Shown here: positions 10,004-61,130 of the stretch, in pieces | Layout: each line of letters starts with the position of its first letter | Position numbering within the stretch: the stretch's first letter is position 1 | Assembly: GCA_025933775.1 (NCBI GenBank) | Contig: JAICZH010000001.1 | Location: 7,237 to 71,236 of the forward strand | Source: Chitinophagaceae bacterium | GTDB taxonomy: Bacteria; Bacteroidota; Bacteroidia; Chitinophagales; Chitinophagaceae | Direction of reading: 5' to 3' | DNA: 64,000 nucleotides | Program-made: the position numbers and the translations under genes | The notes under the pieces: generated by a model | What the model was told of the DNA's origin: nothing | Databases searched by the model: none | Seen by the model: the letters and a program-made list of their open reading frames with translations, nothing else

Positions 10004-10029
10004 TAATTTCGTTTAGCCATCGCCGTTAG
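10004..10029 (-). repeat. Dispersed gene-end motif, copy E (CTAACGGCGATGGCTAAACGAAATTA)
   Basis: Matches the six-copy consensus TAACGGYDAYGSVTAHACG. Confidence 0.75.
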
Positions 10030-10060
10030 TGATGGTTTTTTGTTTTATAAACCTGCGATA

Positions 10061-10777
10061 ATGAAAAGAAAGGCGTTTTTTGCATTAATGCTTGCCATAT
10101 TGCTTCCCGCGGTAGGATACTTGCTGGTAAGCTATTACAGCCAAAGGGATACACAAATGCCCGGGCGATATTTTTATGATAGTGTAAACGTTTCGAAAAA
10201 AAATGGCAAAGATATCTACGATACCGTCTGGCATCATGTAAGTAATATGAAATTTACCAATCAGTTTGGTAAAAAAGTTTCTTTGGCTGATTTAAAAGGA
10301 AAAATTATTGTGCTTGATTTCTTTTTTACACGCTGTCCTTCTATTTGTCCGCGCCTTGCCAAATCAATGAAGCGATTGCAAAATTCTTTCACCGGCGAAA
10401 ATGATTCAATCGTTCAATTCATTTCTATTTCTGTTGATCCCGTTCATGACTCAGTTCCTGAATTACGAAAATGGGCAAAGAAATTTAATGTAGATCCTGA
10501 TAATTGGTGGTTGCTTACCGGCAACAGAGATAGCATTTATAATTTCGGGATTAAAGAAATAAAAGCCAACATTGCTGATGTAAATGTAGATACCGCTTTT
10601 ATACATACAGAAGATTTTTTCCTGCTCGATAAGCAAAGAGTGGTAAGAGGATGGTACAATGGTTTTGATTCCACTGCTCAAAAAAAATTAGTAAGAGATA
10701 TTCCTTTATTAATGCTTGAAAAAAATAATAAGCAAACTTTCGGTCAATTTTTGAAAGGCCTTTTTACAAACAGCTGA
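10061..10777 (+). CDS. SCO1/SenC family copper chaperone
   Basis: FFFTRCPSICP (CxxxC), ISVDPVHDS, HTEDFFLLD; ATG 10061 preferred. Confidence 0.93.
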   Translation: MKRKAFFALMLAILLPAVGYLLVSYYSQRDTQMPGRYFYDSVNVSKKNGKDIYDTVWHHVSNMKFTNQFGKKVSLADLKGKIIVLDFFFTRCPSICPRLAKSMKRLQNSFTGENDSIVQFISISVDPVHDSVPELRKWAKKFNVDPDNWWLLTGNRDSIYNFGIKEIKANIADVNVDTAFIHTEDFFLLDKQRVVRGWYNGFDSTAQKKLVRDIPLLMLEKNNKQTFGQFLKGLFTNS

Positions 10778-10801
10778 AGCCAGAATACATAAATTAAATT
10801 A

Positions 10802-11410
10802 ATGCAATTCATTTCTCCAAACCAGCTACCAGAGCCTGTTCTACAGCCTAATGACAAAAAAGCTACCTTACTGATTTGGATAATTTCTGTACTTGTTTTT
10901 ATTGCCGTTGCATTTCTTGCAGAAATAAAACTCAATATACATTTAGGTTTTGATCCGCACATTTTTGCTACAATAAATGCCATCATCAATTCAATAGTTG
11001 CTCTATTATTAATAGCCGCCTTAATTGCCGTGAAGAATAAAAAATTTTATTTGCATAAAAAAATAATGCTTACTGCCATTGTACTTTCATTTCTTTTTTT
11101 GCTTTCTTACATCTGCCATCATTTATTAAGTGGCGATACAAAATTTGGAGATATTAATCATGATAATATTTTGAGCAGTGCAGAAAAAATTCGGGCAGGT
11201 AACATACGGTATGTTTATTATTGCATTCTTGCCACACATATTCCGCTTGCAGGAATTATTCTTCCGTTTATTTTGTTTACAGCATACCGGGCTTTATCGG
11301 GAAATTATGAAAGGCATAAAAAACTGGCAAAAATTACATGGCCCATCTGGCTGTATGTTGCTATAAGTGGAGTAACGGTTTATTTAATGATAAGGCAGTA
11401 CTACATTTAA
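10802..11410 (+). CDS. DUF420 membrane protein
   Basis: HKKIM, YICHH, ILATHI, HKKLAKITWPIWLYVAISGV; usual companion of cox/SCO genes. Confidence 0.88.
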   Translation: MQFISPNQLPEPVLQPNDKKATLLIWIISVLVFIAVAFLAEIKLNIHLGFDPHIFATINAIINSIVALLLIAALIAVKNKKFYLHKKIMLTAIVLSFLFLLSYICHHLLSGDTKFGDINHDNILSSAEKIRAGNIRYVYYCILATHIPLAGIILPFILFTAYRALSGNYERHKKLAKITWPIWLYVAISGVTVYLMIRQYYI

Positions 11411-11435
11411 TAATTTATTTTTTAAAAAATTTTAT

Positions 11436-11828
11436 TCACAATCCCAATTCCTCATAAGGATCCCAAAATAATTTTTTAAAATTAACAACGGTATCCTTTT
11501 CCACTTTTACCTTTTCTTTTGCTAATAATTCTTCCATAAGTGTAGGCGTTGCAAAATGCGCTTTACCAGTCAGCATTCCATTACGGTTTACCACACGATG
11601 TGCCGGAACTTTGGGCTTTGCAGCACTCGCAGCATTCATCGCCCAGCCCACCATTCGTGCAGAAAGTTTTGTGCCCAGGTAATTGGCAATGGCGCCATAA
11701 GAAGTAACTCTGCCTTTTGGAATTTGCCTTGCCACTGCATACACATCTTCAAAAAAACTGTATTGCTTTGTGATGGTACGAGGCTTTTCATTTTTTGATG
11801 GCCTCTTTTTAGAAATTTTTCCGGTCAT
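11436..11828 (-). CDS. Alkyltransferase-like protein (ATL, MGMT family, non-catalytic)
   Basis: IPKGRVTSYGAIA, ARMVGWAM, VPAHRVV (Ala replaces the PCHR cysteine); ATG 11828 preferred. Confidence 0.9.
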   Translation of the reverse strand: MTGKISKKRPSKNEKPRTITKQYSFFEDVYAVARQIPKGRVTSYGAIANYLGTKLSARMVGWAMNAASAAKPKVPAHRVVNRNGMLTGKAHFATPTLMEELLAKEKVKVEKDTVVNFKKLFWDPYEELGL

Positions 11829-17958: not shown

Positions 17959-18717
17959 ATGAAGTTAAAAGGTATATACAGTTCCCTTTGCGACAGAAAA
18001 TATTCAGGCAAAAAATCTTTTGCTGTATTAATTGACCCCGACAAAGTGAACGATGAAAAAGTGCAGCAATTAATTGAATTAAGCGTAACCGCCGGCATTG
18101 ATTATTTTTTAGTGGGCGGCAGCCTCGTTGTTTCCAATTACACTGATGAATGTGTCGGGCTTATTAAGCGGCATTCAAAAATCCCGGTGATACTTTTTCC
18201 GGGAAGTCCGAACCAGGTTTCTAAAAAAGCGGATGCGTTATTGTATCTCTCGCTGATAAGCGGGCGCAATGCGGATTTGCTGATTGGGCAGCATGTTGTA
18301 AGCGCTCCGGTAATAAAGCAAAGCGGGCTTGAAATAATGAGCACCGGCTACATGGTAATTGATGGTGGCGCTCCCACAACGGTTTCTTATATTTCTAATG
18401 CATCGCCTTTGCCTGCCGATAAAAATGAAATAGCCATGTGCACTGCTATGGCTGGTGAAATGCTGGGCATGAAATTAATTTATATGGATGCCGGCAGCGG
18501 CGCCAAAAGAGCCATTACAGAAAGCATGATAGAAAAAGTGGCCGGTTGTATTTCAGTGCCTTTAATAATTGGCGGCGGCATTACCGATCCTGAAAAAGCT
18601 TATATAAATTGCAAAGCCGGTGCTGATGTAATTGTAGTGGGCAATGCAATTGAAAAAGATGAAAACCTGATAATGGAAATTGCTTCGGCAGTGCATTCGG
18701 TGCCGGTGAAAGTATAG
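17959..18717 (+). CDS. Geranylgeranylglyceryl/heptaprenylglyceryl phosphate synthase (PcrB family)
   Basis: LIDPDK, VGGS, SLISGRN, YMDAGSGA, IGGGI, VVGN motifs. Confidence 0.9.
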   Translation: MKLKGIYSSLCDRKYSGKKSFAVLIDPDKVNDEKVQQLIELSVTAGIDYFLVGGSLVVSNYTDECVGLIKRHSKIPVILFPGSPNQVSKKADALLYLSLISGRNADLLIGQHVVSAPVIKQSGLEIMSTGYMVIDGGAPTTVSYISNASPLPADKNEIAMCTAMAGEMLGMKLIYMDAGSGAKRAITESMIEKVAGCISVPLIIGGGITDPEKAYINCKAGADVIVVGNAIEKDENLIMEIASAVHSVPVKV

Positions 18718-18743
18718 CTAACGGTAATGGCTATACGAAGTTT
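18718..18743 (+). repeat. Dispersed gene-end motif, copy A (CTAACGGTAATGGCTATACGAAGTTT)
   Basis: Begins immediately after the GGGP synthase stop codon; consensus match. Confidence 0.75.
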
Positions 18744-18822
18744 AGTTTTTACAAAACAATGTGTACCTCCAAAAAATCTTCAAGATATAACTAGGTTTTA
18801 TTACGCTTGCCTGCAAATGATT

Positions 18823-19500
18823 TTATTGCCCCAATTTGTTTTTATATGCCAGACTCATAACCTGCGAACTGGAATTAACATGCAGCTTTTCATAAATGTT
18901 GGCAATGTGTTTTCTAACAGTGAAGATGCTGATGTAAAGCGTGTCGGCTATTTGTTTTGGGCTAAAGCCTTTGATGGTATATTGCAAAATTTCTTTTTCT
19001 CTTTCTGATAATAAATTATTAAGTGAAGATAATCCACTTTCGGTTGTTGTAGTTTTTACAGAAGCTTTGCTAAGTATATCAAAAGTTTTTCGCGCTATTG
19101 ACGGACTCATAGGAGCGCCTCCCTGTTCTAAAGAATTGGTAATAGCATTTCGAAGAGAAATGGCATTATCATCTTTTAGCAAATACCCGTTGGCGCCTGC
19201 TTTTATGGCTTCAAAAATTCTATCATCATCATCAAACACGGTAAGCACAATCAAATGAATGGAAGGATATAAAACTTTTACAATTTGTATTAACTGTATG
19301 CCACTCATGTTGGGCATCTCAAGGTCAACAAATAAAATCTGTGGCAATTTTTCAGGCGATAATTCTTTTAGCTTTTCAAGACAGGCGTCACCTTTTGGCG
19401 CAACGAAAACCACTTCGAGGTCGTCAAAGCTTTGCACTTTGCGTACAAAAGTGTTTCTGTTTACCATGTTATCATCCACAAAAGCAACTTTAATAAACAT
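18823..19500 (-). CDS. NarL/LuxR-family response regulator
   Basis: FVDD, VDLEMPNMSG, AGANGYLLK, LSEREKEIL...TVRKHIANIYEKLHV. Confidence 0.95.
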   Translation of the reverse strand: MFIKVAFVDDNMVNRNTFVRKVQSFDDLEVVFVAPKGDACLEKLKELSPEKLPQILFVDLEMPNMSGIQLIQIVKVLYPSIHLIVLTVFDDDDRIFEAIKAGANGYLLKDDNAISLRNAITNSLEQGGAPMSPSIARKTFDILSKASVKTTTTESGLSSLNNLLSEREKEILQYTIKGFSPKQIADTLYISIFTVRKHIANIYEKLHVNSSSQVMSLAYKNKLGQ

Positions 19501-19545
19501 AATTATAAAGTTGAGCTATTTAGCTATTGAAGTCAATACTTATTT

Positions 19546-21477
19546 TTAATTATTTTTCTCAGTTTTTGATGTGAGCCGCACAATTGTTCCTTTTGTAGCA
19601 GGTGTTGAAAAAGTTAAAACAAAACCAGCCTCCGAAGCACGGGTTTTCATATTGCTTAAGCCATTGCCTGTATTTATCTTTTCATCAGGATTAAATCCTG
19701 CTCCGTTATCTTCAACACTTATATTTATAATTCCTTTTTTATCCGACACATCAACAATTATTTTATCGCCGCCGCTATGCACCAAAGCATTGTGTATTGC
19801 TTCCTGCACTATCCTGAAAATATGCAATGCCTGTACGGGTGAAAATTTTTTAGTGCCGTTAATATTTTCTTCAAGAAATATTTTAATGTGAGGATATAAC
19901 GGTTGAATTTTTTGAATGTATGTCCTAAGCCTGTCGTTAATACCGGTAATCGTTACCGCCTCTTTGTTAAATGCCCAAATAGTGTCTCTAAGTGAAGAGA
20001 TAATTTCTGCAGCATTTGATTTTAAGCTTTGAAGAAAATAAGTATCAGAAATTAATTTACGGTTTTCTATATCATCAATGCCGTAACTGATAGCAGAAGC
20101 ATAAGCGCCGATGTTATCATGCAAATCTGCCGCAATACGTTTTCTTTCTTTTTCTTCTGCATTATTCAATGCAATTCTTTGCCTGCGCCGGATGTAGCGA
20201 TATATAAAAAAGGCGATCGCTATAATTAATAACGTTATAAGTACAACAGTAGTTATTAAAATATTCTTGTGCAAAAGTTGCAATTGTTGTTTGGCAATAA
20301 AAGCTTCCTTGCTGCTTACTTCATACTGTGCTTCTAATTTTGCGAGGTCCTCGGCTTTACTTTTTTGATACAAAGAATCTTTAAGCATCATTAATGTGTC
20401 CATCGTTTCGCCATAAGCATCGTAGTTCTTCATCAGTTTATAACAATCAGCGAGGTCTTTATAAAAAGATAGTATAAATGGTTCATGATATTTTTTTGAT
20501 AAAGCTTGTGCCTGCCTGATGTATTCTATTGCCTTTAGATAATTTTTTTGTTGTGTATAAAATATTTCAAGGGCTTCCATACCTACCAAAATAAATTGAA
20601 TGTTGCCTATTTGATTTTGAAGCGCTACTGCTTTCTTGAGCATTTGTTCTGCTGAATCAATTTTGTTTCGGTCACTATACATCAAGCCTCCTAATAAAAA
20701 ACAATCAGCTTCGCTTCTGAGGTTTTGGTTTTGCCGGGCAATCTCAAGCGCTTTGTTAAGAAAAATATATGCTGAATCGTATTTTTTTGTATTAAAATAA
20801 GTAGCAGCAAGGTTTGTAAATACCAAAGGAAATTGGTTGTACGTGCTGCTATTTTTAATTGTTGAATATGCCTCATTAAACCACTTCAATGCTTCAACAC
20901 GGTTTCCTAAAATATTATTGTTAACGCCCAAATTATTTAATGCAGTTACTTTTGCAAAAATATCATTGGTACTATCGGCCTCTTGCAATAATGCAAAACA
21001 TATATTGGTGGATTCTTCGATTTTGCGAAGCTTAGTTAATGCTACAATTTTATTCCATGTAAGCCGGCAATAAACGTCAAACATGCTTTTGCCAGCTTTT
21101 ATTTGTTTTAAATCTTCATTACAAATATTGAGGGAACTATCTGCCATTCCTTTATAAGAATAACTTTCCCCTATATAAAAATCAGATAGAAATTGGTCAT
21201 GTAAATTTTTATTTTCAATGCTGATTTTTTTAGCCATTCTTGCAAACTTTGCCAAAGTGTCTGCAGGCATGGATTCTCCATGGCTGCACAATCCAAAGAG
21301 AACCGAAATCCTATCAATATTGGCATTGTTTAGTTCTCTTTTCAGGCTGTCAATTAAGCGGGTTTGTGAATAGGAATTTGTGTTTGAAAAAGCAAACAAA
21401 AAAATCAGCCCAAATAAAATTTTGTAATAGAAATTTTTGAGAGTTGATGTGTTATTATTTATTACGACGCGTAGCAT
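19546..21477 (-). CDS. TPR-containing sensor histidine kinase (HisKA_3)
   Basis: TPR-like N-terminal repeats, one TM, ERKRIAADLHDNIG, EAIHNALVHS, DNGAGF, GNGLSNM. Confidence 0.92.
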   Translation of the reverse strand: MLRVVINNNTSTLKNFYYKILFGLIFLFAFSNTNSYSQTRLIDSLKRELNNANIDRISVLFGLCSHGESMPADTLAKFARMAKKISIENKNLHDQFLSDFYIGESYSYKGMADSSLNICNEDLKQIKAGKSMFDVYCRLTWNKIVALTKLRKIEESTNICFALLQEADSTNDIFAKVTALNNLGVNNNILGNRVEALKWFNEAYSTIKNSSTYNQFPLVFTNLAATYFNTKKYDSAYIFLNKALEIARQNQNLRSEADCFLLGGLMYSDRNKIDSAEQMLKKAVALQNQIGNIQFILVGMEALEIFYTQQKNYLKAIEYIRQAQALSKKYHEPFILSFYKDLADCYKLMKNYDAYGETMDTLMMLKDSLYQKSKAEDLAKLEAQYEVSSKEAFIAKQQLQLLHKNILITTVVLITLLIIAIAFFIYRYIRRRQRIALNNAEEKERKRIAADLHDNIGAYASAISYGIDDIENRKLISDTYFLQSLKSNAAEIISSLRDTIWAFNKEAVTITGINDRLRTYIQKIQPLYPHIKIFLEENINGTKKFSPVQALHIFRIVQEAIHNALVHSGGDKIIVDVSDKKGIINISVEDNGAGFNPDEKINTGNGLSNMKTRASEAGFVLTFSTPATKGTIVRLTSKTEKNN

Positions 21478-21686
21478 ATTTAAAAATTTCTCTAAGCTGT
21501 TTTAAAAAAATTTTCTGTTCACGTTTCAAGCATTAATGAAGTAGCATAAGCAGTTCAAATTATATCTTAAATCAAAGTTGATAAAATTCTTCGGTTTTTA
21601 AAATACTGAAATTTAGTTATTGACTACGCTTCATCGTGAAAGTAATTTCATTTTTCAAAAATTTACTTCATTTTAAAAATAGTATT

Positions 21687-22157
21687 ATGAAAAAGTTACT
21701 GCATTTATCGCCACTCATTATTATTCTGAGTGTATTTATAATTTTAGCCGGATGCTCTAAAAAGAAAAATTCACCGCAAATTAGTGCGGGCGTTGGTACT
21801 TATACTTTCAACGGAACAAATATGTATACCACCAACGATACATTAACCGGTGATTTTTTTAGCGGTGGTAAAGATGTAACTATGTGGCCAACATCAAGTG
21901 TTACGGCTTCCAACCTTGTTTTTGTTGATAACATTCCTGCTCAAAGTTCCGGCTCGGTAAATCTTTCAGATGGAAGCAATCAGTCCTCCACTGCTCCATA
22001 CATATTAGGATATAATGGTCAAATTCATTTTTCTTCTGTAGCCAATAGCGGTTCAGTTACAAAAACAGGCGCCAATTCTTTCAGTTTTTCCTGTACGGTG
22101 AGCGATGATAGTAATCCTTCCAATACGTATTCACTTTCGGGAAGCGGCACGTATTAG
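21687..22157 (+). CDS. Ser/Thr/Gly-rich beta-sheet lipoprotein, unknown function
   Basis: Lipobox LAGC followed by SKKK; ATG 21687 preferred. Confidence 0.75.
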   Translation: MKKLLHLSPLIIILSVFIILAGCSKKKNSPQISAGVGTYTFNGTNMYTTNDTLTGDFFSGGKDVTMWPTSSVTASNLVFVDNIPAQSSGSVNLSDGSNQSSTAPYILGYNGQIHFSSVANSGSVTKTGANSFSFSCTVSDDSNPSNTYSLSGSGTY

Positions 22158-22213
22158 GTTTATAAATAAATCTTTTCTAAAAATCTTTTTTTTATTTTTT
22201 AAAAAACAACATC

Positions 22214-22696
22214 ATGAAAAAAATTTCTCTAATGTTTTTCAGCTTTGTATTAATAATGAATTTAAAAGCACAGGTAAATAATAATCCTGATGCGACTGTA
22301 ACTTCAAAAGCTGTTTATGCAGAATTGGGGGGAAGCGGTATTGGGTTTTCTGCAAATTTTGATTCAAGATTTAAAGGCCATAACGGGCTTGGATACCGCG
22401 CAGGTATTGGTTTTTTGCCAGCAATCGACAAAAAAGTTCTTACTTTTCCACTTGGAATAAACGCACTGATTGGTAAAGGGCCCAACTATCTTGAAGCAGA
22501 AGTTACCGTTACACCTATTACTGCTAAAGTTACTTTTAAGAAAAAAGTTTCTTCCATTTTTATTTTTCCGCATATTGGGTATCGTTATACCAAACCGGCC
22601 AGTAGTTTTAATTTTAGAATTTATGGCGGCCCGCTCATTATTGTGAGTAAAGTTATCCCCTGGGCAGGTTTATCATTTGGTTATACTTTAAAATAA
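22214..22696 (+). CDS. Small outer-membrane beta-barrel-like protein
   Basis: Signal peptide; AVYAELGG, GYRAGIG, GYRY, WAGLSFGYTL amphipathic strands. Confidence 0.7.
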   Translation: MKKISLMFFSFVLIMNLKAQVNNNPDATVTSKAVYAELGGSGIGFSANFDSRFKGHNGLGYRAGIGFLPAIDKKVLTFPLGINALIGKGPNYLEAEVTVTPITAKVTFKKKVSSIFIFPHIGYRYTKPASSFNFRIYGGPLIIVSKVIPWAGLSFGYTLK

Positions 22697-22725
22697 TATA
22701 TCGCAGAAATTTGCATTGAACGAAT

Positions 22726-22751
22726 ATAACGGTGATGGGTACACGAAAATA
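22726..22751 (+). repeat. Dispersed gene-end motif, copy B (ATAACGGTGATGGGTACACGAAAATA)
   Basis: Between convergent genes; consensus match. Confidence 0.75.
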
Positions 22752-22757
22752 TTATTT

Positions 22758-23243
22758 TTATTGCTTCACTTTAAAATCCTGGTTGCTCACCGGCGGCGCT
22801 GTTGGAATGGTAATTACATTAAATTCAAAATTATTAGCGGCATGGCAACTATTGCACGAAGCGGTAAGCAAATGAAATGCTGATTTAAATTGATCCATAT
22901 TTTTATTGTGAATGGCATTGGCAACACTATCAATTGAAGAATACATCATCGGTATCATTTTTACTTCCGGTCTTTCTGTTTCAATTTGCGTAGCCTGAAC
23001 AAATCTTTCTTTTAATTCATCTATTTCGTACTGTGCCAGTTTCCAGTTATTATTAATCCCGGCATACCAAAGTTTGGCATGATGTGTTTGAATGCCACCC
23101 ATAATTTCTCCAAGTCCCGGCGCATATTGAGCCATTATTTTATGCAGGCTGTCAGCAGTTATTTGTGTTTCCGGTTGAGCAGTTTTATTATTGGAGCAGG
23201 ACGTAAACAAAATGAGAGATATCAGTAGTGGAAATAATTTCAT
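22758..23243 (-). CDS. Helical monoheme cytochrome c lipoprotein (cytochrome c'-like architecture)
   Basis: Lipobox FTSC; C-terminal CNSCH; PGLGEIMGGIQTHHAKLWYAG segment; ATG 23243 preferred. Confidence 0.7.
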   Translation of the reverse strand: MKLFPLLISLILFTSCSNNKTAQPETQITADSLHKIMAQYAPGLGEIMGGIQTHHAKLWYAGINNNWKLAQYEIDELKERFVQATQIETERPEVKMIPMMYSSIDSVANAIHNKNMDQFKSAFHLLTASCNSCHAANNFEFNVITIPTAPPVSNQDFKVKQ

Positions 23244-23360
23244 GACGAAAATTTTAATGATCAGATTGGCAGAAGGTACAAAATTTTTTTGACGAACTTT
23301 CACCTGGAAGAAATATTAAAATGTAATGACAATTAAACTATATGTTTTCAGCAAGTTATT

Positions 23361-24644: not shown

Positions 24645-24654
24645 TAAATTATTT

Positions 24655-25377: not shown

Positions 25378-25467
25378 AGTTTTAAAAAATTTACAATGTT
25401 GAAAGAAATTTTCTCAATAGCAAAGTAAGTAGTTTTTGCTTTTGAAGGAGGTTTTAGTAAAAAAAAA

Positions 25468-29858: not shown

Positions 29859-29860
29859 AA

Positions 29861-51755: not shown

Positions 51756-52556
51756 ATGAATACAGAAACTTACCAGATAAAGTTACCGCAGTTTGAAGGG
51801 CCATTCGATCTGTTGCTTTTTTTTATTGAAAGAGATGAACTGGATGTTTACAATATTCCGATTACAAAAATTACCAACGAATTTCTTGATTACATTCATA
51901 AAAGCGAATCTTTAAATATAGAATTGAGCAGTGAATTTATATTATTCATTAGTACGCTTATGCGCATCAAAGCAAAAATGCTTTTGCCCAGAAAAGAAAT
52001 AGATGCCGAAGGAAATGAAATAGATCCGCGTCGGGAGTTAGTAGATAAAATTTTAGAATATAAAAAGTTTAAAGAGGCCGCTGTAAAAATGAGCGAGCTG
52101 GAGGCCTTGCGCATGTTGATGGTGAAGCGGGGAAATATTCAGGAAGAACTTTCTAAAATTGGAGAAGAAGCAGGAGAGGGCACAGAAATACAAGCTGTTT
52201 CTTTATTCAAATTGATGAAGGCGTTTGAAAGAGTAGCCAGCCGGCTTCATGCAAAAAGGCATCAACTGGTGCATACGGTAGTACAGTATAATTATACCAT
52301 GGAAGGTACCCGCGAATACATGCTAAGCCTGGTTCAAAAAGAACAAGCCTTGTCTTTTGAAAAAATATTTGATATAGCAGAAAATCGCATTCATGCTATT
52401 TTTCTTTTTTTAAACATGCTTGAACTTATTCAGCAAAAATATTTTTTAATAACAATGGGAACGGGTATCAATAATTTTATAATTGAATATAATCAAGAAC
52501 GACCCGATGATGCATTAACGCTGCCTGCAACCATTGTGGATGCTACGCTTAATTAA
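51756..52556 (+). CDS. scpA: Segregation and condensation protein A
   Basis: FEGPFDLLLFFI, SEFILFISTLMRIKAKMLLP, DPRRELV. Confidence 0.92.
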   Translation: MNTETYQIKLPQFEGPFDLLLFFIERDELDVYNIPITKITNEFLDYIHKSESLNIELSSEFILFISTLMRIKAKMLLPRKEIDAEGNEIDPRRELVDKILEYKKFKEAAVKMSELEALRMLMVKRGNIQEELSKIGEEAGEGTEIQAVSLFKLMKAFERVASRLHAKRHQLVHTVVQYNYTMEGTREYMLSLVQKEQALSFEKIFDIAENRIHAIFLFLNMLELIQQKYFLITMGTGINNFIIEYNQERPDDALTLPATIVDATLN

Positions 52557-52588
52557 TATTTAATAAGATTTCTGAAAATAAAAGGCGG

Positions 52589-54523
52589 TTAATTATTTCC
52601 TTCAATTAATTTATTCACTTCTATTGAAGCCATATCACGTATCGCTTCTGCGATATGATTTGCGTCTATGCCTATTTCATTATACAATTCTTTCGGAGTT
52701 CCATGTTCTATAACAATATCAGGTATTCCTAATATTTTCGTATAGGCGTGGTAGTTATGTTCCGCCATAAATTCTAAAATGGCAGAACCAAATCCGCCTT
52801 TTACTGTTCCGTCTTCTACAGTAATTATTTTAGAATAATTTTTAAAAACTTCATGAAGTATTTTTTCATCCAAAGGTTTTACAAAACGCATATCATAATG
52901 CGCCGGATTGATGCCTTCATTTTTTACTTCTCGTATGGCTGCGGCAGCAAAATTTCCCGGATGGCCATAAGAAAGAATCGCAATCTCTTCACCATCTTTT
53001 AATTTTCTTCCGGTACCGATTTTTATTTCTTTCATTTCTGTTTTCCAATCGGCCTTTACCGCTTCGCCGCGTGGGTAACGGATTACAAAAGGATTTTTTA
53101 TTTTTTCTAATTGAGATGTAAACATAAGATTGCGCAATTCACTTTCATTCATCGGAGCGCTTACAATCATGTTGGGTATGCAACGCATGTACGCAATATC
53201 ATAAGCGCCGTGATGCGTTGGGCCATCTTCGCCCACAAGCCCTGCCCTATCTAAGCAAAACACTACTGGTAAATTTTGTATCGCAACATCGTGCACTACC
53301 TGGTCGTAACCGCGCTGCATAAACGAAGAATAAATATTGCAGAAAACTTTCATTCCTTGCGTGGCAAGCCCTGCGCTTAGTGTAACGGCGTGTTGCTCGC
53401 AAATGCCCACATCAAAAGCACGATCGGGCATTTGCTCCATCATATACTTTAATGAACTTCCACTCGGCATCGCAGGAGTAATGCCCATAATCTTTTTATT
53501 TTTTTCTGCCAGTTCAATAATAGTATATCCAAATACATCCTGGTATTTCGGCGGTTGCGGAAGATCAAATTTTTTCTTATAAATTTCGCCGGTTATTTTA
53601 TCAAACAATCCCGGTGCATGCCATTTGGTTTGATCTTTTTCTGCCAGCTCATACCCTTTTCCTTTTATTGTTTTTATATGCAAAAGTTTTGGACCAGGAA
53701 TATCTTTAATGTCTTTTAAAGTATCAACCAACTTTGTAATATTATGTCCGTCAATTGGCCCAAAGTACCGTAGATTAAGGGCTTCAAACAAATTACTGCT
53801 GTTGCTTACAATTCCTTTTAAGCTGGCTTCAATTTTTGAAACAATTTTTCTTGATAATGTTTTCGCAGGAAGTTTGCCTAACGCTTTCCAGAAATCATCG
53901 CGAAATTTATTATACGAATGAGAAGTAGTAATATCAGTAAGATATTCTTTTAATGCACCCACATTCGGGTCAATGCTCATGCAGTTATCATTTAGAATAA
54001 TAAGCAAATTACTTTTTTCAATGCCGGCATGATTCAATGCTTCGAAAGCCATTCCCGCCGTCATTGCGCCATCCCCGATGATGGCAACGTGCTGCCGGTT
54101 AATTTCACCTTTATAATGTGAAGCCATCGCCATTCCCAGCGCAGCAGAAATAGAAGTAGATGAATGGCCCACACCGAAAGTGTCATATTCGCTTTCTGCT
54201 CTTTTAGGAAAACCGCTAAGCCCTTTATATTTTCTGTTGGTTTTAAAATTATCTTTTCTGCCAGTAAGAATTTTATGACCATAGGCCTGGTGACCCACAT
54301 CCCACACCAATTGATCGTAAGGAGTATTGAATACATAATGCAATGCAACGGTAAGTTCCACTACGCCGAGGCTGGCTCCAAAGTGGCCGCCATACACGCT
54401 TACAACATCTACAATATATTGGCGCAATTCTTTACACACCTGGTGCAGTTGCTCCTTGCTAAGTTTTTTTAAATCGTCCGGGCTATTTATATTTTGCAAT
54501 AATTTGCCGGGTGTAATTTCCAT
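52589..54523 (-). CDS. dxs: 1-deoxy-D-xylulose-5-phosphate synthase
   Basis: WDVGHQAY, GHSSTSISA, GDGAMTAG, LNDN, DVGICEQH, DRAGLVGEDGPTHHG; ATG 54523 preferred. Confidence 0.97.
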   Translation of the reverse strand: MEITPGKLLQNINSPDDLKKLSKEQLHQVCKELRQYIVDVVSVYGGHFGASLGVVELTVALHYVFNTPYDQLVWDVGHQAYGHKILTGRKDNFKTNRKYKGLSGFPKRAESEYDTFGVGHSSTSISAALGMAMASHYKGEINRQHVAIIGDGAMTAGMAFEALNHAGIEKSNLLIILNDNCMSIDPNVGALKEYLTDITTSHSYNKFRDDFWKALGKLPAKTLSRKIVSKIEASLKGIVSNSSNLFEALNLRYFGPIDGHNITKLVDTLKDIKDIPGPKLLHIKTIKGKGYELAEKDQTKWHAPGLFDKITGEIYKKKFDLPQPPKYQDVFGYTIIELAEKNKKIMGITPAMPSGSSLKYMMEQMPDRAFDVGICEQHAVTLSAGLATQGMKVFCNIYSSFMQRGYDQVVHDVAIQNLPVVFCLDRAGLVGEDGPTHHGAYDIAYMRCIPNMIVSAPMNESELRNLMFTSQLEKIKNPFVIRYPRGEAVKADWKTEMKEIKIGTGRKLKDGEEIAILSYGHPGNFAAAAIREVKNEGINPAHYDMRFVKPLDEKILHEVFKNYSKIITVEDGTVKGGFGSAILEFMAEHNYHAYTKILGIPDIVIEHGTPKELYNEIGIDANHIAEAIRDMASIEVNKLIEGNN

Positions 54524-54694
54524 TTTGTATTTTTTATTTGGCAAAGTTAAGTTATTGGATTTTTATGGATTTTAAACAGTTTTAGAAAATATAAGATTTT
54601 AAAAATTAAGAAATCTGAAAATGTGCGGAAAGATTTCTATAATATTTTATATACGAAAAAAAGAATACAATAGTATTTGAAATAAGATAAATAT

Positions 54695-55402
54695 TTACAT
54701 CATTTTCAAAATCAAATTTGGGTCAGGGCAATTTGCCAAATATTTTTTTCTTTCACTTATTTTACAAACTCCGGGATAATCTCCTTTATAATTTTCAATA
54801 TCATGAATGATTTGAAAATGCAGGTGTGGCGGCCAGTTTCCATTTTCTTCAACAGAACCAAAGTGTGCAAATAATTGTCCGGCTTTTATAAAATCACCTT
54901 CATGAATTTGCTGCAGATCTGCAAAGCTTAAATGGCCATACAAAGTATAAAAAGAAATTTCATAAAACACATGCTTTAAAATAATGGTAGCGCCATAATC
55001 GCCAAAATTATTATTGAATGCAAAGCTGTGAACCGTTGCATCGCACGGAGCAAAAATTTCAGTTCCTTCTTTCCCGGAAATGTCCACGCCAATATGTAAT
55101 CTTCGCGGCTCTTCATTTGAAGAATTTGTATTAATATCATTATTGAAAAGTTTACTTCGCGAATACATCGGCCTTTTTTCATTGTAACCGCCAATGCCAT
55201 ATTTGGCCCCCGATTGCTTCAATAAATTATTTATATATTCAGATAAAAGAATGGTATTTGTAAAATCAATATTGTTCAGCGCTTTGTTATTTTGCGATGA
55301 ATCAACATGAATTATTTTTTCATGTTCAGGATTAAATGATACAACCGGATGAAAGATGTTTTTATTTCTTTTCAACCATTCATGTAAAATATTTTTATTC
55401 AA
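54695..55402 (-). CDS. M23 family metallopeptidase
   Basis: HIGVD, GDYG, LYGHLS, PPHLHFQI. Confidence 0.88.
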   Translation of the reverse strand: MNKNILHEWLKRNKNIFHPVVSFNPEHEKIIHVDSSQNNKALNNIDFTNTILLSEYINNLLKQSGAKYGIGGYNEKRPMYSRSKLFNNDINTNSSNEEPRRLHIGVDISGKEGTEIFAPCDATVHSFAFNNNFGDYGATIILKHVFYEISFYTLYGHLSFADLQQIHEGDFIKAGQLFAHFGSVEENGNWPPHLHFQIIHDIENYKGDYPGVCKISERKKYLANCPDPNLILKMM

Positions 55403-55464
55403 GATTAAATTTTGTTTTATTTGATAAATTGCAAGTTCATTATTTTTTATAAATTAATTGCTTT

Positions 55465-58400
55465 ATGAAACCATATAAAATACTTTTCATTTTTCTTATT
55501 ATTTCATTTCAAACTATTGCTCAAAAAACACCGTTATGGTTACGCTATCCTGCCATTTCCCCTGATGGAAAAAGTATTGTTTTTAGTTTTAAAGGAGATT
55601 TATATAAAGTAAGTGCTTCAGGCGGAACTGCCTATCCGCTTACATTGCACGAGGCGCATGATTTTATGCCGGTATGGAGCCATGATGGAAAAAAAATTGC
55701 TTTTGCAAGCGATCGCTTTGGAAATTTTGATGTATTTGTAATTGATGCAAATGGCGGAGAACCGACAAGACTTACTTATAATTCTGCACAAGATTATCCG
55801 TATGATTTTTCTCCTGATGATAGTAAAGTTATTTTCGGAACCAATAGAAATGATATTGCATCTTCAGCTCGGTTTCCTGTGTTATCTGTTTTCAAAAAAT
55901 TGTATGAAGCGTCCGTGAATGGAGGCCGCAGCATTATGGTCAACAGCGCCGGAATGGAAAATGCACATTACAATTCAAAAGGAAGTGAAATTATTTTTCA
56001 GGATAATAAAGGCTTTGAAGACCCCTGGCGCAAACATCATACTTCATCAATCACCCGCGACATCTGGTTGTACAATATAAAAAATGATTCTTATAAAAAA
56101 CTTAGTTCTTTTAATGGCGAAGATCGTGAACCCATCTTTTCTTCCGATGATCAAAAATATTTTTATTTAAATGAAAAAAGCGGCTCATTAAATGTGTATG
56201 AAGCCGAAACTAACCTGCCTACCGGACAGGCAGGCGGTGATGATGAAACGCAGTTAACCCATTTTAAAAATAACCCGGTTCGTTTTTTAAGTCGGGCAAA
56301 TGATAACACGCTTTGCTTTACTTATGATGGCGAAATTTACACCATGAAACCCGGCGGTTCACCTGAAAAATTAAATGTTATTATTAATTCAGAAAATAAA
56401 GACAATACACAAACAGTAATGCCTGTAAATGGAGGCGCCACTGAGTTTGAGCTATCGCCCAATGGAAAAGAAATTGCTTTTGTATTTCGCGGTGAAATAT
56501 TTGTAACCTCTGTTGATGGCGGAATTACCAAGCGTATTACCAACACGCCTTTCCAGGAAAGAACGGTAACATTTTCTCCAGACGGAAGAAGTCTTTATTA
56601 TGCAGCCGAGCATGAAGACAAAGGATGGGACATAATGAAAACATCTATTGCAAGAAAAGAAGAGCCTTATTTTTTTACTTCAACTGTTTTAAAAACTGAA
56701 CCGGTGATTGCAACTGATAAAGATGAATTTCAGCCCGAAGTTTCTCCTGATGGAAAAGAAATCGCTTATCTCGAAGAAAGAAATATTTTGAAAGTTTTTA
56801 ATCTCGATAAAAAAACATCACGCACCATAATTCCCGAAGGACAAAATTTTTCTTATGAAGACGGTGATCAAAATTACAAATGGAGCCCGGACAGTAAATG
56901 GATTGCTGCCAACAGTTCGAAAGGTTATTATGACGCAAACGAAATAATGCTTTATAATGTAACAAAAAATGATAACGGAACAGATGTAACCCAATCCGGT
57001 TTTGCAACCGAAGGCATGCAATGGGCGCTTAATGGTAAAGCGCTGCTTTGGGTTACAGACAGAAATGGGAAAAGGCCTCTGGCCATGCAAGGCGCAAGAG
57101 AGGTTGATATTTATGCCATGTTCTTTGATAAAGAAACGTATGATCAGTTTCAGCTAAGCAAAGAAGAATATTCTCTCTTAAAAGAAAAAGAAGATTCGAG
57201 CGGAAAAAAAGAAAAAGAAAAAAATGATACGGCGCTTGCTAAAAAAATAAAAGAACCATTCAAAATGGATCTAACGGACCTCGATATACGAAGAGTGCGG
57301 TTAACCACAAGTTCTGTAAATCTTAGCAGCTATCGTATTTCACCAAAAGGAGATCAGCTTTATTTTACAGCCAGGTTTGAGAAAGGATTTGATCTTTGGC
57401 AAATAGATACACGCACGCATGAACAGAAACTATTAGCAAAACTTGGCGACAACAGAGCATCGCTTGAAATGAGTAAAGATGGTAAAATGCTTTATGTTTT
57501 ATCAAACGGGAAAATATCACAGGTAAGCACTGCTGATGGAAAAATAACTCCGATAAGTATAAACAGTGAAATGGTTGTGGACCATGCAGCGGAAAGAGAA
57601 TATATTTTTAACCATGCATGGAGGCAGGTAAAGAAAAAATTAATATATCCCGATATGCATGGAGTGGATTGGGAAATGTATAAAAAAACTTATGCAAAAT
57701 TTTTGCCCTTTATTGCTGATAATTACGACTTCCGCGAATTGCTGAGTGAAATGCTGGGTGAACTAAATGTTTCGCATACGGGTGGTCGTTATATACCCAA
57801 TGTTGAAAATGGGGATGAAACAGCTTCACTTGGTTTATTATACGATGAAATGCAAGGTGGCAAAGGATTAAAGATAGATGAAGTAATTTCCGGCGGGCCA
57901 CTTGATAAGGCAAAAAGCAAAATAAGAGCAGGGCAAATTCTTGAAAAAATTGATGGCAATGAAATTGATAATTCACAGGACTGGGCAATATTTTTAAACA
58001 GGAAAAATAGCGTGAATGTTTTGCTTACTGTTTATGATCCATCAACAAAAAATACATTTGATGAAGTGGTTAAGCCCATCAAACCTTCTGATGAAGGAAG
58101 TTTAATGTATAGAAGGTGGACTAAAAAAATGGAAGCAATGGTTGATAAATTAAGCAATGGTAAAGTAGGATATGTGCATGTACAGGCTATGAATGATAAC
58201 AGTTACAGAAGTGTGTTCGACGAAGTGTTGGGGAAAAATCTTACTAAAAAAGCATTGATTGTTGATACCCGCTTTAATGGAGGCGGAAATCTTCATGAAG
58301 AGTTATCAAATTTTTTGGATGGTAAACAATATACACGTAATGAGCCTTACGGGTTAAAACCAATTGGTGGTGGCGATCCCGAGGGGAAATGGTATAAACC

Positions 58401-58725
58401 AAGTTGTGTGGTAATGAATGAAGCTAATTACAGCGATGCCCATATTTTTCCTTATGCATATCGTGCAAAAGGAATAGGAAAGTTAATTGGAATGCCTGTA
58501 CCCGGCACGGGCACTTCAGTTTGGTGGGAAAGACAAATTGATCCTACCATGATTTTTGGAATTCCGATGATAGCTTTTATAGGCGTCAAAGAAGGAAAGC
58601 CACTTGAAAATATGCAGCTGGAACCTGATATTAAAGTGCAGAATGATTATAATAAAATTTTAAAAGGAGAAGACCAACAGATAGAAGCTGCGGTAAAAGA
58701 AATGTTGAAAGAAGTTGGCGATTAA
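55465..58725 (+). CDS. Tricorn-like S41 peptidase with beta-propeller and PDZ domains
   Basis: Signal peptide, PD40-like repeats (PAISPDGK, WSHDGK), ELNVSHTG, DTRFNGGG, NYSDAH. Confidence 0.92.
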   Translation: MKPYKILFIFLIISFQTIAQKTPLWLRYPAISPDGKSIVFSFKGDLYKVSASGGTAYPLTLHEAHDFMPVWSHDGKKIAFASDRFGNFDVFVIDANGGEPTRLTYNSAQDYPYDFSPDDSKVIFGTNRNDIASSARFPVLSVFKKLYEASVNGGRSIMVNSAGMENAHYNSKGSEIIFQDNKGFEDPWRKHHTSSITRDIWLYNIKNDSYKKLSSFNGEDREPIFSSDDQKYFYLNEKSGSLNVYEAETNLPTGQAGGDDETQLTHFKNNPVRFLSRANDNTLCFTYDGEIYTMKPGGSPEKLNVIINSENKDNTQTVMPVNGGATEFELSPNGKEIAFVFRGEIFVTSVDGGITKRITNTPFQERTVTFSPDGRSLYYAAEHEDKGWDIMKTSIARKEEPYFFTSTVLKTEPVIATDKDEFQPEVSPDGKEIAYLEERNILKVFNLDKKTSRTIIPEGQNFSYEDGDQNYKWSPDSKWIAANSSKGYYDANEIMLYNVTKNDNGTDVTQSGFATEGMQWALNGKALLWVTDRNGKRPLAMQGAREVDIYAMFFDKETYDQFQLSKEEYSLLKEKEDSSGKKEKEKNDTALAKKIKEPFKMDLTDLDIRRVRLTTSSVNLSSYRISPKGDQLYFTARFEKGFDLWQIDTRTHEQKLLAKLGDNRASLEMSKDGKMLYVLSNGKISQVSTADGKITPISINSEMVVDHAAEREYIFNHAWRQVKKKLIYPDMHGVDWEMYKKTYAKFLPFIADNYDFRELLSEMLGELNVSHTGGRYIPNVENGDETASLGLLYDEMQGGKGLKIDEVISGGPLDKAKSKIRAGQILEKIDGNEIDNSQDWAIFLNRKNSVNVLLTVYDPSTKNTFDEVVKPIKPSDEGSLMYRRWTKKMEAMVDKLSNGKVGYVHVQAMNDNSYRSVFDEVLGKNLTKKALIVDTRFNGGGNLHEELSNFLDGKQYTRNEPYGLKPIGGGDPEGKWYKPSCVVMNEANYSDAHIFPYAYRAKGIGKLIGMPVPGTGTSVWWERQIDPTMIFGIPMIAFIGVKEGKPLENMQLEPDIKVQNDYNKILKGEDQQIEAAVKEMLKEVGD
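56214..56234. repeat. 21-nt palindrome translated in frame inside the S41 gene
   Basis: CCTGCCT-ACCGGAC-AGGCAGG, within the codons for NLPTGQAG. Confidence 0.7.
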
Positions 58726-58773
58726 AAATAATTCGGATCAGGTATAACATCAGAATAATTTATTTAAACAAGA

Positions 58774-59616
58774 CTATAAAATATCTTTCAGCAAAAAAGT
58801 TTCATTACTGCGTATACCCCTGTCCGTTAGTTGCAGGTTGCAGCATTCAATCAGCGGGTCATGTTCAAAAAATAATATGTAATCGTTTTGTTGCGCTTCT
58901 CTCAGAAATTCTTTTTTTTCTGCAAGTGTTTCCAAAGGCCTTGTATCATAAGCCATTATGTAAGGAACGGGAATGTGCGCTACAGAAGGCAACAAATCTG
59001 CCATATAAACAATGGTTTTATTTTTATATTTTATTTGTGGCAGCATCATGGATTCGGTATGGCCGCTTACAAAACGCACTTGTATATTTTGTATAAATTC
59101 AATTCCTTGTTTTGTTTCAATAAATTTTAATTGGCCGCTTTCTTTTATGGGTAAAATATTTTCTTTTAAAAAACTTGCCTTCTCCCTTTCATTAGGGTGG
59201 GTAGCCCATTCCCAGTGTTTTTCATTGCTCCAATAAGTTGCGTTTTTAAAAGCGGGTACTAATTTATCGTTTATTTTTTCTATTGAGCCACCGCAATGAT
59301 CAAAATGAAGATGGGTTAAAAAAACATCCGTAATATCATCTTTTGTAAACCCATATTTTGATAAAGATTTTTCGAGCGTATCATTTCCATGCAAATAATA
59401 ATAACCAAAAAATTTTTCGCCCTGCTTATTGCCCATTCCATTATCAATAAGAATAAGATGATTATTATCTTCAATCAACAAACAGCGCATTGCCCAACTA
59501 CACATATTATTTTCATCAGGTGGATTGAGTTTTGCCCAGATACTTTTTGGCACTACGCCAAACATGGCGCCACCATCCAGTTTGAAATGTCCTGCATTTA
59601 TGGAATATAATTTCAT
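58774..59616 (-). CDS. MBL-fold metallo-hydrolase
   Basis: LDGGAMFGVVPK, THLHFDHCGG, GHT, FEHD. Confidence 0.93.
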   Translation of the reverse strand: MKLYSINAGHFKLDGGAMFGVVPKSIWAKLNPPDENNMCSWAMRCLLIEDNNHLILIDNGMGNKQGEKFFGYYYLHGNDTLEKSLSKYGFTKDDITDVFLTHLHFDHCGGSIEKINDKLVPAFKNATYWSNEKHWEWATHPNEREKASFLKENILPIKESGQLKFIETKQGIEFIQNIQVRFVSGHTESMMLPQIKYKNKTIVYMADLLPSVAHIPVPYIMAYDTRPLETLAEKKEFLREAQQNDYILFFEHDPLIECCNLQLTDRGIRSNETFLLKDIL

Positions 59617-59695
59617 CTACAATATTTTTAAGCAAAGATATATAAGATAAAAAGCAGTGAAGGAAAGGGTTTTGTTGATCCGGAAATTTTATTTT

Positions 59696-61042
59696 TTATT
59701 CTGCTACATTAATATCATTGGATAATCCAAGTTGTTTTTCTTTCGCTAAAGCAAAATATAAAATAATAAAACCCACAATAAAAAAACACATCACTACTAA
59801 TACAGAATTTTTCATACTTCCGGTAAGTTCTTCTATTAATCCGAAACTAAACATGCCAATTACAATTCCTATTTTTTCGGTAACGTCATAAAAGCTGAAG
59901 AATGATGTAGTATCTTTTGTAACGGGCATCAGCTTTGAATAACTGGATCTGCTAAGCGATTGTATGCCGCCCATCACAAGGCCAACCACTGCAGCCAAAA
60001 TATAAAAATACATCTCTGCATTGGCGCCGCTTTCGCTGATGTTGGCAATTTCATAAGCGCCGATGCAAATCAATATCCAGATGATTACTACGCTTAATAA
60101 AGTTTGAAAATTTCCAAACTTTTCAGAAAGCTTTGCCATCATGTGAGCGCCGGCAATAGCCACAATTTGTATAATCAAAATGGTAATGATTAATTTTTCA
60201 GTAGGCAATTTTAATTGCTTGCTTCCAAATAAAGCTGCCACAAGCATAATCGTTTGCACACCCATATTGTAAAAGAAAAATGCTAATAAAAATCTTTTCA
60301 GTATTAATAAAGTTTTCAGTTGATTAAAAACTTTTTTAAGTTCAATAAACCCATTTATAAAAATATTATTCTCCGGCCTGAAGGCTGCCGGCGTGCCTTT
60401 CGGCATTCTGTTTAAAGTTATTTGCGCAAAGCCAAACCACCAGGCGCCCACCAGTAAAAAAGAAAAACGTGCAGGCATTGTTGCGTCGTTTTGCATACCA
60501 AACCAATCGGGCTTAAAAACAAAAACAAAACATACTAATTGTAAAATAACACTACCCACATATCCTCTTGCAAAACCTTTGGCGCTTACACGGTCTCTGT
60601 CTTCGGGCGCTGCTATTTCCGGCAAATAAGAATTATAAAAAACAAGGCTGTTCCAAAAACCAATACATGCAATCATGCTGCAAACAATAGCCACCCAAAG
60701 GTTTCCGCTTCCTTTAAAAAAGAAAAGCAAGCTGCATGAAACACTGCCCAAAAAACAGAAGAAACGAAGGAAACTTTTTTTGTTTCCTTTGTAATCTGCA
60801 ATGGATGAAAGCACGGGGGACATGATAGCTACAATAAGAAATGCAATGCCTAAAGCATAATTATATAAAGCCGTATTTACAAAATGCCGTCCCAAAAAAG
60901 TTACTTCATTATTGGTATTATTTTTTGTTACAGTTTCATAATAAGCCGGAAAAATAGTGGAAGTAATTACGAGACTATACACCGAATTGGCCCAGTCGTA
61001 CATCGCCCATCCGTTTATAATTTTTTTGGAAGCAGTTTGCAT
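59696..61042 (-). CDS. MFS transporter (BtlA/YxiO-like)
   Basis: GWAMYDWANS, FYNSYLPEIA, GGIQSLSRS. Confidence 0.9.
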   Translation of the reverse strand: MQTASKKIINGWAMYDWANSVYSLVITSTIFPAYYETVTKNNTNNEVTFLGRHFVNTALYNYALGIAFLIVAIMSPVLSSIADYKGNKKSFLRFFCFLGSVSCSLLFFFKGSGNLWVAIVCSMIACIGFWNSLVFYNSYLPEIAAPEDRDRVSAKGFARGYVGSVILQLVCFVFVFKPDWFGMQNDATMPARFSFLLVGAWWFGFAQITLNRMPKGTPAAFRPENNIFINGFIELKKVFNQLKTLLILKRFLLAFFFYNMGVQTIMLVAALFGSKQLKLPTEKLIITILIIQIVAIAGAHMMAKLSEKFGNFQTLLSVVIIWILICIGAYEIANISESGANAEMYFYILAAVVGLVMGGIQSLSRSSYSKLMPVTKDTTSFFSFYDVTEKIGIVIGMFSFGLIEELTGSMKNSVLVVMCFFIVGFIILYFALAKEKQLGLSNDINVAE

Positions 61043-61104
61043 TTGTAAATAAATGATTGCTCAAATTAGCAAAATATCGGTAAGAAAAAGAAATCATTTT
61101 TTGT

Positions 61105-61130
61105 GAAAAGCGTTTATGCGTTACCGTTAT
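61105..61130 (-). repeat. Dispersed gene-end motif, copy F (ATAACGGTAACGCATAAACGCTTTTC)
   Basis: The TAA of the motif is the uppP stop codon; consensus match. Confidence 0.75.

Follow-up and report, generated by a model that had tools for sequence, protein, structure and literature searches.

A candidate REP-like, non-palindromic repeat of Chitinophagaceae with a core that may be read by a DNA-binding protein

What is a short, asymmetric sequence that recurs behind unrelated genes of one bacterial genome, and how did its copies come to be there? The question is raised by a 64-kb stretch of a Chitinophagaceae bacterium (contig JAICZH010000001.1, positions 7,237 to 71,236; the whole stretch is referred to as the window), in which an earlier reading made from the sequence alone had noticed six copies of a motif of about 20–26 bp at gene ends. 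The motif may be an extragenic repeat resembling the repetitive extragenic palindromic (REP) elements, although non-palindromic, with a 21-bp core that is the putative site of a DNA-binding protein; the probability of this reading is put at roughly 0.5. Judged from aligned sequences, the core is most likely bound by a protein, and we infer that its copies may have spread in the manner of a mobile element. In Proteobacteria, dispersed extragenic repeats, which there are palindromes moved by REP-associated tyrosine transposases (RAYTs), have been studied well; to our knowledge, there has been hardly any such work on Bacteroidota. No description of the motif was found in the literature, where papers on dCas12f and on TAACTGA repeats do not fit it.

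The pattern TAACGGNNANGNNTANACG matches the window exactly seven times and occurs in none of 100 dinucleotide-preserving shuffles. All six copies of the sequence-only reading were confirmed in position and strand (Table 1), and the 13 invariant positions proposed there hold without gaps, while the total rises to seven with copy G, overlooked earlier in an open reading frame (ORF) for a metallo-β-lactamase (MBL)-fold protein (58774–59616, minus strand). When scored against the extended pattern TAACGG..A.G..TA.ACGAA (15 specified bases), five copies in the window are perfect, one (G) has a single mismatch and four sites (F and the three matches inside genes) have two mismatches, against 0.2 expected; this bimodal distribution of matches indicates that the site is sharply defined. 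About 100 matches from other genomes were aligned, and the 44 intergenic ones, from many genera, were also aligned alone. The consensus is M-TAACGG-T-N-A-K-G-S-A-TA-M-ACGAA-A-W-T, a unit of about 26–33 bp whose 21-bp core holds about 30 bits, and in the 44 intergenic copies conservation is confined to position 0 to about +25. The core is interrupted by six variable positions; in the logo, positions 8 (all four bases), 10, 12/13 and 16 are free and show no covariation. The pattern of invariant and variable positions is identical in the phage arrays described below and in some 40 intergenic copies drawn from many genera. Two subtypes are seen in the window, GCATA (C, D and F) and GGCTA (E and A), and in the logo a T-rich run without a stem often lies 3' of the motif.

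Table 1. Motif copies, weaker motif matches and the segment bounded by copies A and B in the 64-kb window (window coordinates)
Feature	Position	Core	Strand	Context
Copy E	10004–10029	10010–10028	−	85-bp co-directional spacer, COX4 stop (9975) to SCO1 start (10061); antisense to both
Copy A	18718–18743	18719–18737	+	2 nt past PcrB stop; convergent spacer with LuxR-type response regulator gene
Lineage-specific segment	18744–22725			LuxR-type response regulator, tetratricopeptide repeat (TPR) histidine kinase, ORFs of 156 and 160 aa (without Pfam matches)
Copy B	22726–22751	22727–22745	+	61-bp convergent spacer, beside p181
Copy C	29833–29858	29834–29852	+	Co-directional spacer, GT2 stop to rhomboid start; antisense to both
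Copy D	33538–33563	33539–33557	+	Convergent spacer, tRNA-Pro(CGG)/acyl-CoA dehydrogenase gene
Possible decayed or embedded copy	52737–52757		−	Two mismatches, ACGAAAATAT tail kept; 3' part of dxs
Two-mismatch match, chance or decayed copy	53307–53327		+	Inside dxs, antisense
Two-mismatch match, chance or decayed copy	57272–57292		+	Inside tricorn-like protease gene
Copy G	58804–58830	58811–58829	−	Final 18 codons of MBL-fold ORF, convergent with tricorn-like protease gene; one AA-tail mismatch
Copy F	61105–61130	61111–61129	−	TAA is the BacA/UppP stop codon; upstream of Atg22-like major facilitator superfamily (MFS) gene; tail CT, not AA

No longer element was detected, as nothing else is conserved within ±60 nt of the motif in the aligned copies, and the inverted flanks of 10 bp at C and B are specific to the individual copy and absent from the sister copies. 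Single-stranded DNA folds over ±55 nt gave no hairpin shared by the seven window copies (z −1.6 to +1.4 versus shuffles), the positions that would pair in a hairpin (7/16 and 8/15) do not covary, and no copy has an Rfam match, either at the gathering threshold or at E<=10. The motif is thus an asymmetric signal in the linear sequence, spanning about two turns of the helix. It is not accounted for by any annotated feature. A structured RNA was rejected, as there is no Rfam match, no conserved pairing and no sense/antisense bias. The same holds for an intrinsic terminator, which had been discounted at the outset: no G+C-rich stem is present, folds and terminator scans are negative, and terminator-like sites stand at chance level.

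The copies share a position rather than a gene function. All of those in the window lie within 86 nt of a gene 3' end, close to the 80 nt or so first claimed, and the finer placements also stand, with A directly behind a stop codon and F containing one as its TAA (Table 1), while C, said to abut one, ends 2 nt from the GT2 stop codon on the other strand. The p181 stop codon (22758–22760) is 6 nt from the motif end of copy B (22751) and 12 nt from its core end. The motif is present in four of the nine convergent spacers of the window, in three of 44 co-directional ones and in none of the eight divergent ones, although the last make up a quarter of the intergenic DNA (convergent versus all other spacers, Fisher p=0.007); intergenic copies in other genomes lie in 14 convergent, 18 co-directional and 5 divergent spacers. 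Four window copies are on the plus strand and three on the minus strand, unrelated to gene direction; in the co-directional spacers of other genomes, 10 copies are sense and 8 antisense. Polar chromosome motifs such as Chi, KOPS and Ter have a strand bias tied to the direction of replication, and the four-to-three split was seen in a window where GC skew shows no clear switch. The lack of strand preference relative to genes counts against an RNA-level role and a promoter, and the avoidance of divergent spacers counts against an ordinary operator.

An operator of an ordinary transcription factor, or a promoter of an alternative sigma factor or RNA-guided activator, is therefore very improbable, even though the site is long and asymmetric, like the 20-bp boxes of monomeric regulators with two helix-turn-helix (HTH) domains, and copies E, C and F lie upstream of a gene start. 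Most copies are located between convergent genes and none in the divergent window spacers, the neighbouring genes are unrelated housekeeping genes with no common function, the sites are not retained at orthologous genes in relatives (site A), no TTTG or TAnnTTTG box is present, and the distance and orientation to start codons are not fixed. A Bacteroidota sigma-A promoter, which has TTTG at −33 and TAnnTTTG at −7 and lies upstream of genes, was likewise rejected, in line with the earlier statement that the motif is not the TAnnTTTG box: on the opposite strand the motif gives AWTTTCG, in which an invariant C takes the place of the required G, no TA is conserved, and most copies face 3' ends. 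Promoter-like sites in the scanned sequence are at chance level. LytTR-type operators consist of two 9-bp direct repeats ([TA][AC][CA]GTTN[AG][TG]) with a spacer of 12–13 bp; the reverse complement of the motif contains similar 9-mers (TTCGTKTAT and ACCGTTAKN) but with a 5-bp spacer, and this is a lead only. Other look-alikes, namely the Myb site YAACGG, the DnaA box, the XerC arm, the Spo0A box, the −35/−10 elements of extracytoplasmic function (ECF) sigma factors and the sigma-54 spacing, fail on the invariant positions or on spacing. Targets of dCas12f-sigmaE lie upstream of the gene to be activated and are defined by a 5'-G motif and a contiguous guide match of 13–16 nt (PMC13472631), which the six variable positions interspersed in the core and the location of the copies at gene ends do not fit.

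Some further observations concern gene ends in the window. Over the 28 kb scanned (18000–34000 and 52000–64000), a terminator-like hairpin followed by a T-run is no commoner than in shuffles, and several convergent gene pairs are separated by 25–54 bp only. The poly-T run after tRNA-Pro(CGG) (33481–33500) varies in length among metagenome populations, with one or two extra T behind 33493. The MBL-fold protein that holds copy G (58774–59616) has a weak precomputed match to the Anti-Pycsar Apyc1 family.

The distribution of the motif was examined by scanning 185,579 species, each represented by a single genome, with the pattern TAACGGHNABGSVTAHACGAA. About 70 of the 99 matches listed are named Chitinophagaceae or Chitinophagales, with the genera Hanamia, Ginsengibacter, Ferruginibacter, Chitinophaga, Segetibacter, Agriterribacter, Flavihumibacter, Huijunlia and Edaphocola among them, about 20 belong to unnamed Bacteroidota or unnamed bacteria, and 10 come from other clades, all inside ORFs except one intergenic match (L013). 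Intergenic matches make up about 40% of those listed, which is severalfold more than the intergenic fraction of bacterial genomes. Judged by the matches listed, the motif is essentially restricted to Chitinophagaceae and a part of their phages. Raw counts are inflated by coding look-alikes: a conserved stretch of a dipeptidyl peptidase IV (DPP-IV)-like gene (...LTVTGTRKFINGTFDWVYEEE) carries the motif pattern in frame in L018, L031, L082 and L097, and a stretch of atpD matches the motif with one or two mismatches in L115, L273 and L276.

In the viral database IMG/VR, the core pattern is found at 73 loci, nine of which represent one phage family with GroEL-like proteins 73–100% identical (contigs L192, L205, L209, L213, L221, L227, L241, L248 and L262, of up to 62 kb). 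The gene order in this family is GroES/GroEL-like, a 78-aa gene, an array of motif copies and a gene for a protein of about 200 aa. Each array comprises 4–9 copies within about 250 bp of a conserved divergent spacer, with periods of 21–33 bp, and the contigs have 5–10 matches each versus 0.2–0.5 in shuffles. Copies follow one another in direct orientation or meet head-to-head at the TAAC ends, separated by linkers of 0–12 bp, and beside them are located an AT-rich stretch, a GGGGTGGGGG box and palindromes of the form CTAAC..GTTAG. The invariant and free positions are those of the chromosomal copies, and the fixation of the same positions is a signature of sequence-specific recognition by a protein. 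By analogy, the layout is typical of iterons or operators and would reflect the repeated binding of one putative protein. The protein of about 200 aa has an HTH-like centre; it evolves fast (23–34% identity among the phages), and a word-indexed search of 5.8 billion proteins, limited in its sensitivity, gave only six homologs, so that this protein is an improbable candidate for the conserved reader. The AlphaFold model of the protein (pLDDT 48) is too poor to use. The genes adjoining the arrays have no Pfam or PHROG names and no initiator gene was recognised among them, no annotated relatives of the arrays were found in PLSDB or INPHARED, the only protein matches were distant ones to Cellulophaga phages, and a search of IMG/VR for further arrays by their tandem pattern returned only chance matches among the matches listed.

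The same phage family encodes, in its conserved 78-aa protein, a Cys/Met-rich tail, and also a protein of 424–434 aa distantly related to hypothetical proteins of the Cellulophaga phages phi38:1 and Calle_1. Other viral groups (L190, L193 and L256; L242, L243 and L255; L206, L225 and L253) carry a single intergenic copy that is conserved within each group, and in the first of them (L190, L193 and L256) a terminator-like hairpin directly follows the motif copy.

Like iterons and operators, the phage arrays consist of 4–9 asymmetric sites, each about 21 bp long and either direct or inverted, that lie beside an AT-rich stretch where control of divergent genes is located; unlike iterons, which are private to one replicon, the motif is also scattered singly through the host chromosomes of a whole bacterial family. 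Close spacing of the iteron type is seen in the nine phage contigs, and the window copies are all single. The motif could be an iteron or operator of a phage-type protein, its chromosomal copies acting as putative titrating decoys, tethers or self-marks, and the AT-rich stretch, the palindromes and the flip of GC skew at the arrays are indeed origin- or operator-like, while amplification of the copy number in particular lineages is what an arms race would predict. This explanation is nevertheless highly unlikely, as the array-bearing phage family is rare (judged by the six homologs of the adjoining gene) whereas the motif occurs in many genera, and the skew flip is confounded with divergent transcription, which could explain it equally. 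A broader proposal, in which one conserved putative protein would recognise the site both in chromosomes and in the origin- or operator-like phage arrays, is rather unlikely; it has two variants, the phages recruiting an architectural or insulating protein of the host, or the chromosomal copies being decoys or self-marks amplified against a protein of a phage or mobile element.

The density of the motif differs sharply between relatives. The figure of about one copy per 10 kb given earlier applies to this lineage (about one per 9 kb in the window) but not to the family, for which a sample of about 80 PcrB-centred metagenome loci (677 kb), picked without regard to the motif, holds no exact copy and five copies with one mismatch (four in L115, one in L162); a second copy is also rare in 8-kb loci found through the motif. 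Density is lineage-dependent, being high in the window's species, L115 and L162 and near zero in most relatives. Site A is missing downstream of PcrB in about 70 relatives (PcrB 77–89% identical) and in a 92% relative, in which an 83-bp convergent spacer elsewhere is filled by two direct variant copies (TAACAG...). In L115 (87% identity), a decayed copy with 11 of the 15 specified bases left is located exactly at the place of site A, and about 31 nt beyond it, beside p181, is an intact ortholog of copy B with 14 of 15 bases kept and a diverged spacer. L098 has the motif at identical codons of the MBL-fold ortholog (compare copy G), and the motif is kept between species in five other orthologous spacer pairs. 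Given this turnover at site A, in L115 and in orthologous spacers, copies are gained and lost on the genus time scale, and individual ones can be held for some time. The sole population single-nucleotide polymorphism seen within a window copy, 10022 G>A in copy E, affects motif position 7, which is variable.

The retained copies bear on a further explanation, that of an architectural or insulating site beneficial to the host, at which a chromosomal protein would block read-through both ways or anchor the chromosome, and which phages would borrow. The strong preference for convergent spacers and avoidance of divergent (promoter) spacers suit such a site, as do the lack of an excess of hairpin terminators at gene ends, the working copy kept in the PcrB-p181 spacer of L115 while its neighbour decayed, and the orthologous copies retained between species. 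In the phages, the invariant positions have stayed fixed though the gene for the protein of about 200 aa has diverged to 23–34%, which points to a conserved binder, possibly a host protein. However, five of the nine convergent window spacers have no copy, most relatives are practically without copies, and some of their convergent spacers are too short for one (13 bp in L273, for example); the near absence from most relatives and the short spacers make a general housekeeping role unlikely, and the explanation as a whole is possible but doubtful.

Evidence on how copies arise comes from a comparison of the 71-nt stretch around copy C with four soil metagenomes containing the window's genome. In each of the four, 3–5 further contigs at equal depth, beyond the cognate contig, match this stretch over 33–41 nt with 2–5 differences, the variable positions and the AAAATAAATTAT tail included. 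Copy D has one or two sister copies in the metagenomes and copy E none. At least 15 fixed bases together with shared variable bases cannot arise independently, so the copies were apparently made from other copies. Tandem copies in chromosomes are always direct (four in L035, two each in L090, L115 and L273). The suggestion in the sequence-only reading of a protein-bound genome-wide site, or of the retained end of a small mobile or recombination element, survives in outline, given the fixed positions, the gain and loss of copies and the sister copies, with "genome-wide" holding only in some lineages. In the convergent spacer of L035 (6600–6870, minus strand; a metagenome-assembled genome (MAG) of an uncultured Chitinophagaceae bacterium), a unit of about 100 bp, in which AAAAAATCTTCAAAAAAAG..GCCTGCTA precedes a single motif copy, occurs 3–4 times head-to-tail.

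Copies A and B, both on the plus strand, flank a 4-kb segment (Table 1), while PcrB and p181 are immediate convergent neighbours in eight or more relatives. The motif may thus be considered as a recombination or attachment site, that is, a simple site of a tyrosine, serine or Piv/IS110-like recombinase at which segments or phages enter, and this idea is partly supported by the A-B segment: two direct copies bound a segment missing in at least eight relatives, a link to the motif drawn from this one case, and the left breakpoint in L115 falls just where the decayed A copy has its right edge. In addition, the head-to-head pairs 0–8 bp apart in the phage arrays resemble the core sites of recombinases, and the motif is carried by several phage groups. 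Yet this is the sole indel with copies at its bounds, and a larger synteny break (26.9–41.4 kb) has no copy at either edge; the "empty" L115 has two copies and L117, L110 and L273 have none, whereas simple integration predicts one; and no recombinase is encoded in the window or in the 4-kb segment or recurs beside other copies. The REP-like repeat too would be expected in both of the convergent spacers created by any insertion. Support for a recombination site is weak overall, and this explanation is unlikely. At the larger break (window 26900–41450), the LytTR/kinase pair is about 1.3 kb from the AddA-like helicase gene in the relatives L127, L138, L151 and L187, and in the window 14.5 kb of other genes lie between them.

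The more specific likeness to the R''-L'' half of an integron attC, proposed in the sequence-only reading, failed. As in attC, the motif contains TAAC, which the R'' box also has, and lies at gene 3' ends; but no R'/L' partner box is found within ±60 nt and no hairpin is formed (attC folds span 57–141 nt), the window has no intI or other integrase gene, and the copies are on both strands among genes of mixed orientation, whereas attC sites belong to cassette arrays of a single orientation beside intI/attI. Transposase end sites of the MuA/TnsB type and marbox-type sites are asymmetric sites of about 20–22 bp contacted by two DNA-binding subdomains, and transposon arrays are both direct and inverted. 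Unlike MuA/TnsB ends, the phage arrays are internal to the contigs rather than at their ends, and neither a transposase nor a regulator of these types was detected.

The REP-like repeat with a protein-site core, given even odds above, would work as follows. The core would be read in duplex DNA by one sequence-specific protein, most likely with two reading heads, for TAACGG and TA.ACGAA, and additional contacts at A9 and G11. New copies would arise by duplication, either copy-and-paste or local tandem duplication, and not by point mutation. They would persist where they are least harmful, in spacers behind stop codons and above all between convergent genes, a niche equal to that of REP elements and bacterial interspersed mosaic elements (BIMEs), and their number would grow in some lineages (the window's species, L115 and L162) and be near zero in most relatives. 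Several points weigh against this reading. No transposase or integrase recurs beside the about 40 intergenic copies. The unit has neither an inverted repeat nor a hairpin, and thus no known route of movement of REPs or miniature inverted-repeat transposable elements (MITEs) obviously applies. Copy counts come from sampled loci. The comparison of orthologous loci, informative in the absence of site A from about 70 relatives, showed no clean pair of empty and filled sites and no target-site duplication (L273 versus L276; window versus L115). In the search for a binder candidate, no homologs of the phage genes adjoining the arrays were found in the window or in host loci. Moreover, B and several orthologous copies have been retained, which might indicate that the sites serve the host and are not selfish.

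Known repeat families offer likenesses and differences. REP families occupy convergent and unidirectional spacers near 3' ends, with about 50-fold variation of family size between related species, and, like REPs and BIMEs, including those with GTAG and CGTC tags, the motif is short, extragenic, near 3' ends, occasionally within genes and sometimes clustered (PMC3733652). Unlike REPs, which are imperfect palindromes with stems of 5–13 bp, it has no stem; its chromosomal tandem copies are all direct, whereas REP dimers are mostly head-to-head; and no link to a RAYT is seen, none being found in the window, while REPs are not known as phage arrays. The reverse complement of the motif begins TTCGTN, and the CGTC tag is seen only in some phage copies. 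The dRS3 repeats of Neisseria, with the neisserial intergenic mosaic elements (NIMEs), and the Correia elements are short, family-restricted spacer repeats, some of which bound inserts or serve phages (filamentous prophages in the case of dRS3). The dRS3 repeat has been classed as CGTC-1 (PMC3733652). Inserts bounded by dRS3 or Correia elements would parallel the 4-kb A-B segment, but the motif, unlike these repeats with their terminal inverted repeats, is seen to bound one insertion only, with no associated recombinase. With the DNA uptake sequences or uptake signal sequences (DUS/USS), the motif shares its non-palindromic form, family specificity, over-representation and frequent location behind genes; however, this candidate was rejected, as uptake sequences occur family-wide at about one per kb, also within genes, and the motif is about ten times rarer even where it is abundant and all but missing from most relatives, with invariant positions that are spaced and do not form a contiguous core.

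The examined ORFs of the window are ordinary chromosomal genes, encoding cytochrome oxidase, PcrB, two-component systems, an AddA-like helicase, RecR, PdxA, ribosome recycling factor (RRF), ScpA, Dxs and UppP among others, and domain searches found no integrase or transposase among them. The window matches contigs of the MAG GCA_025934795.1 and many soil-metagenome contigs, and its PcrB is 83–92% identical to proteins named Ginsengibacter, Hanamia or Chitinophagaceae. A pair of genes for UmuD-like (Peptidase_S24) and UmuC-like (IMS, Y-family polymerase) proteins is located at 39582–41400, just upstream of the AddA-like helicase-nuclease gene.

The case combines a long non-palindromic core, restriction to one family, lineage-limited amplification and reuse in the tandem arrays of phages. 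If a protein shared by chromosomes and phages were indeed to read the site, this would be a non-palindromic REP-like repeat tied to phage-host interplay, of a kind not yet described. An identified binder could reveal a new mechanism by which a hairpin-less repeat spreads; alternatively, it could prove to be a novel chromosomal protein, one that labels where transcription units end and that phages exploit. As a practical use, the motif may serve as a sharp taxonomic marker for the DNA of Chitinophagaceae and their phages in metagenomes.

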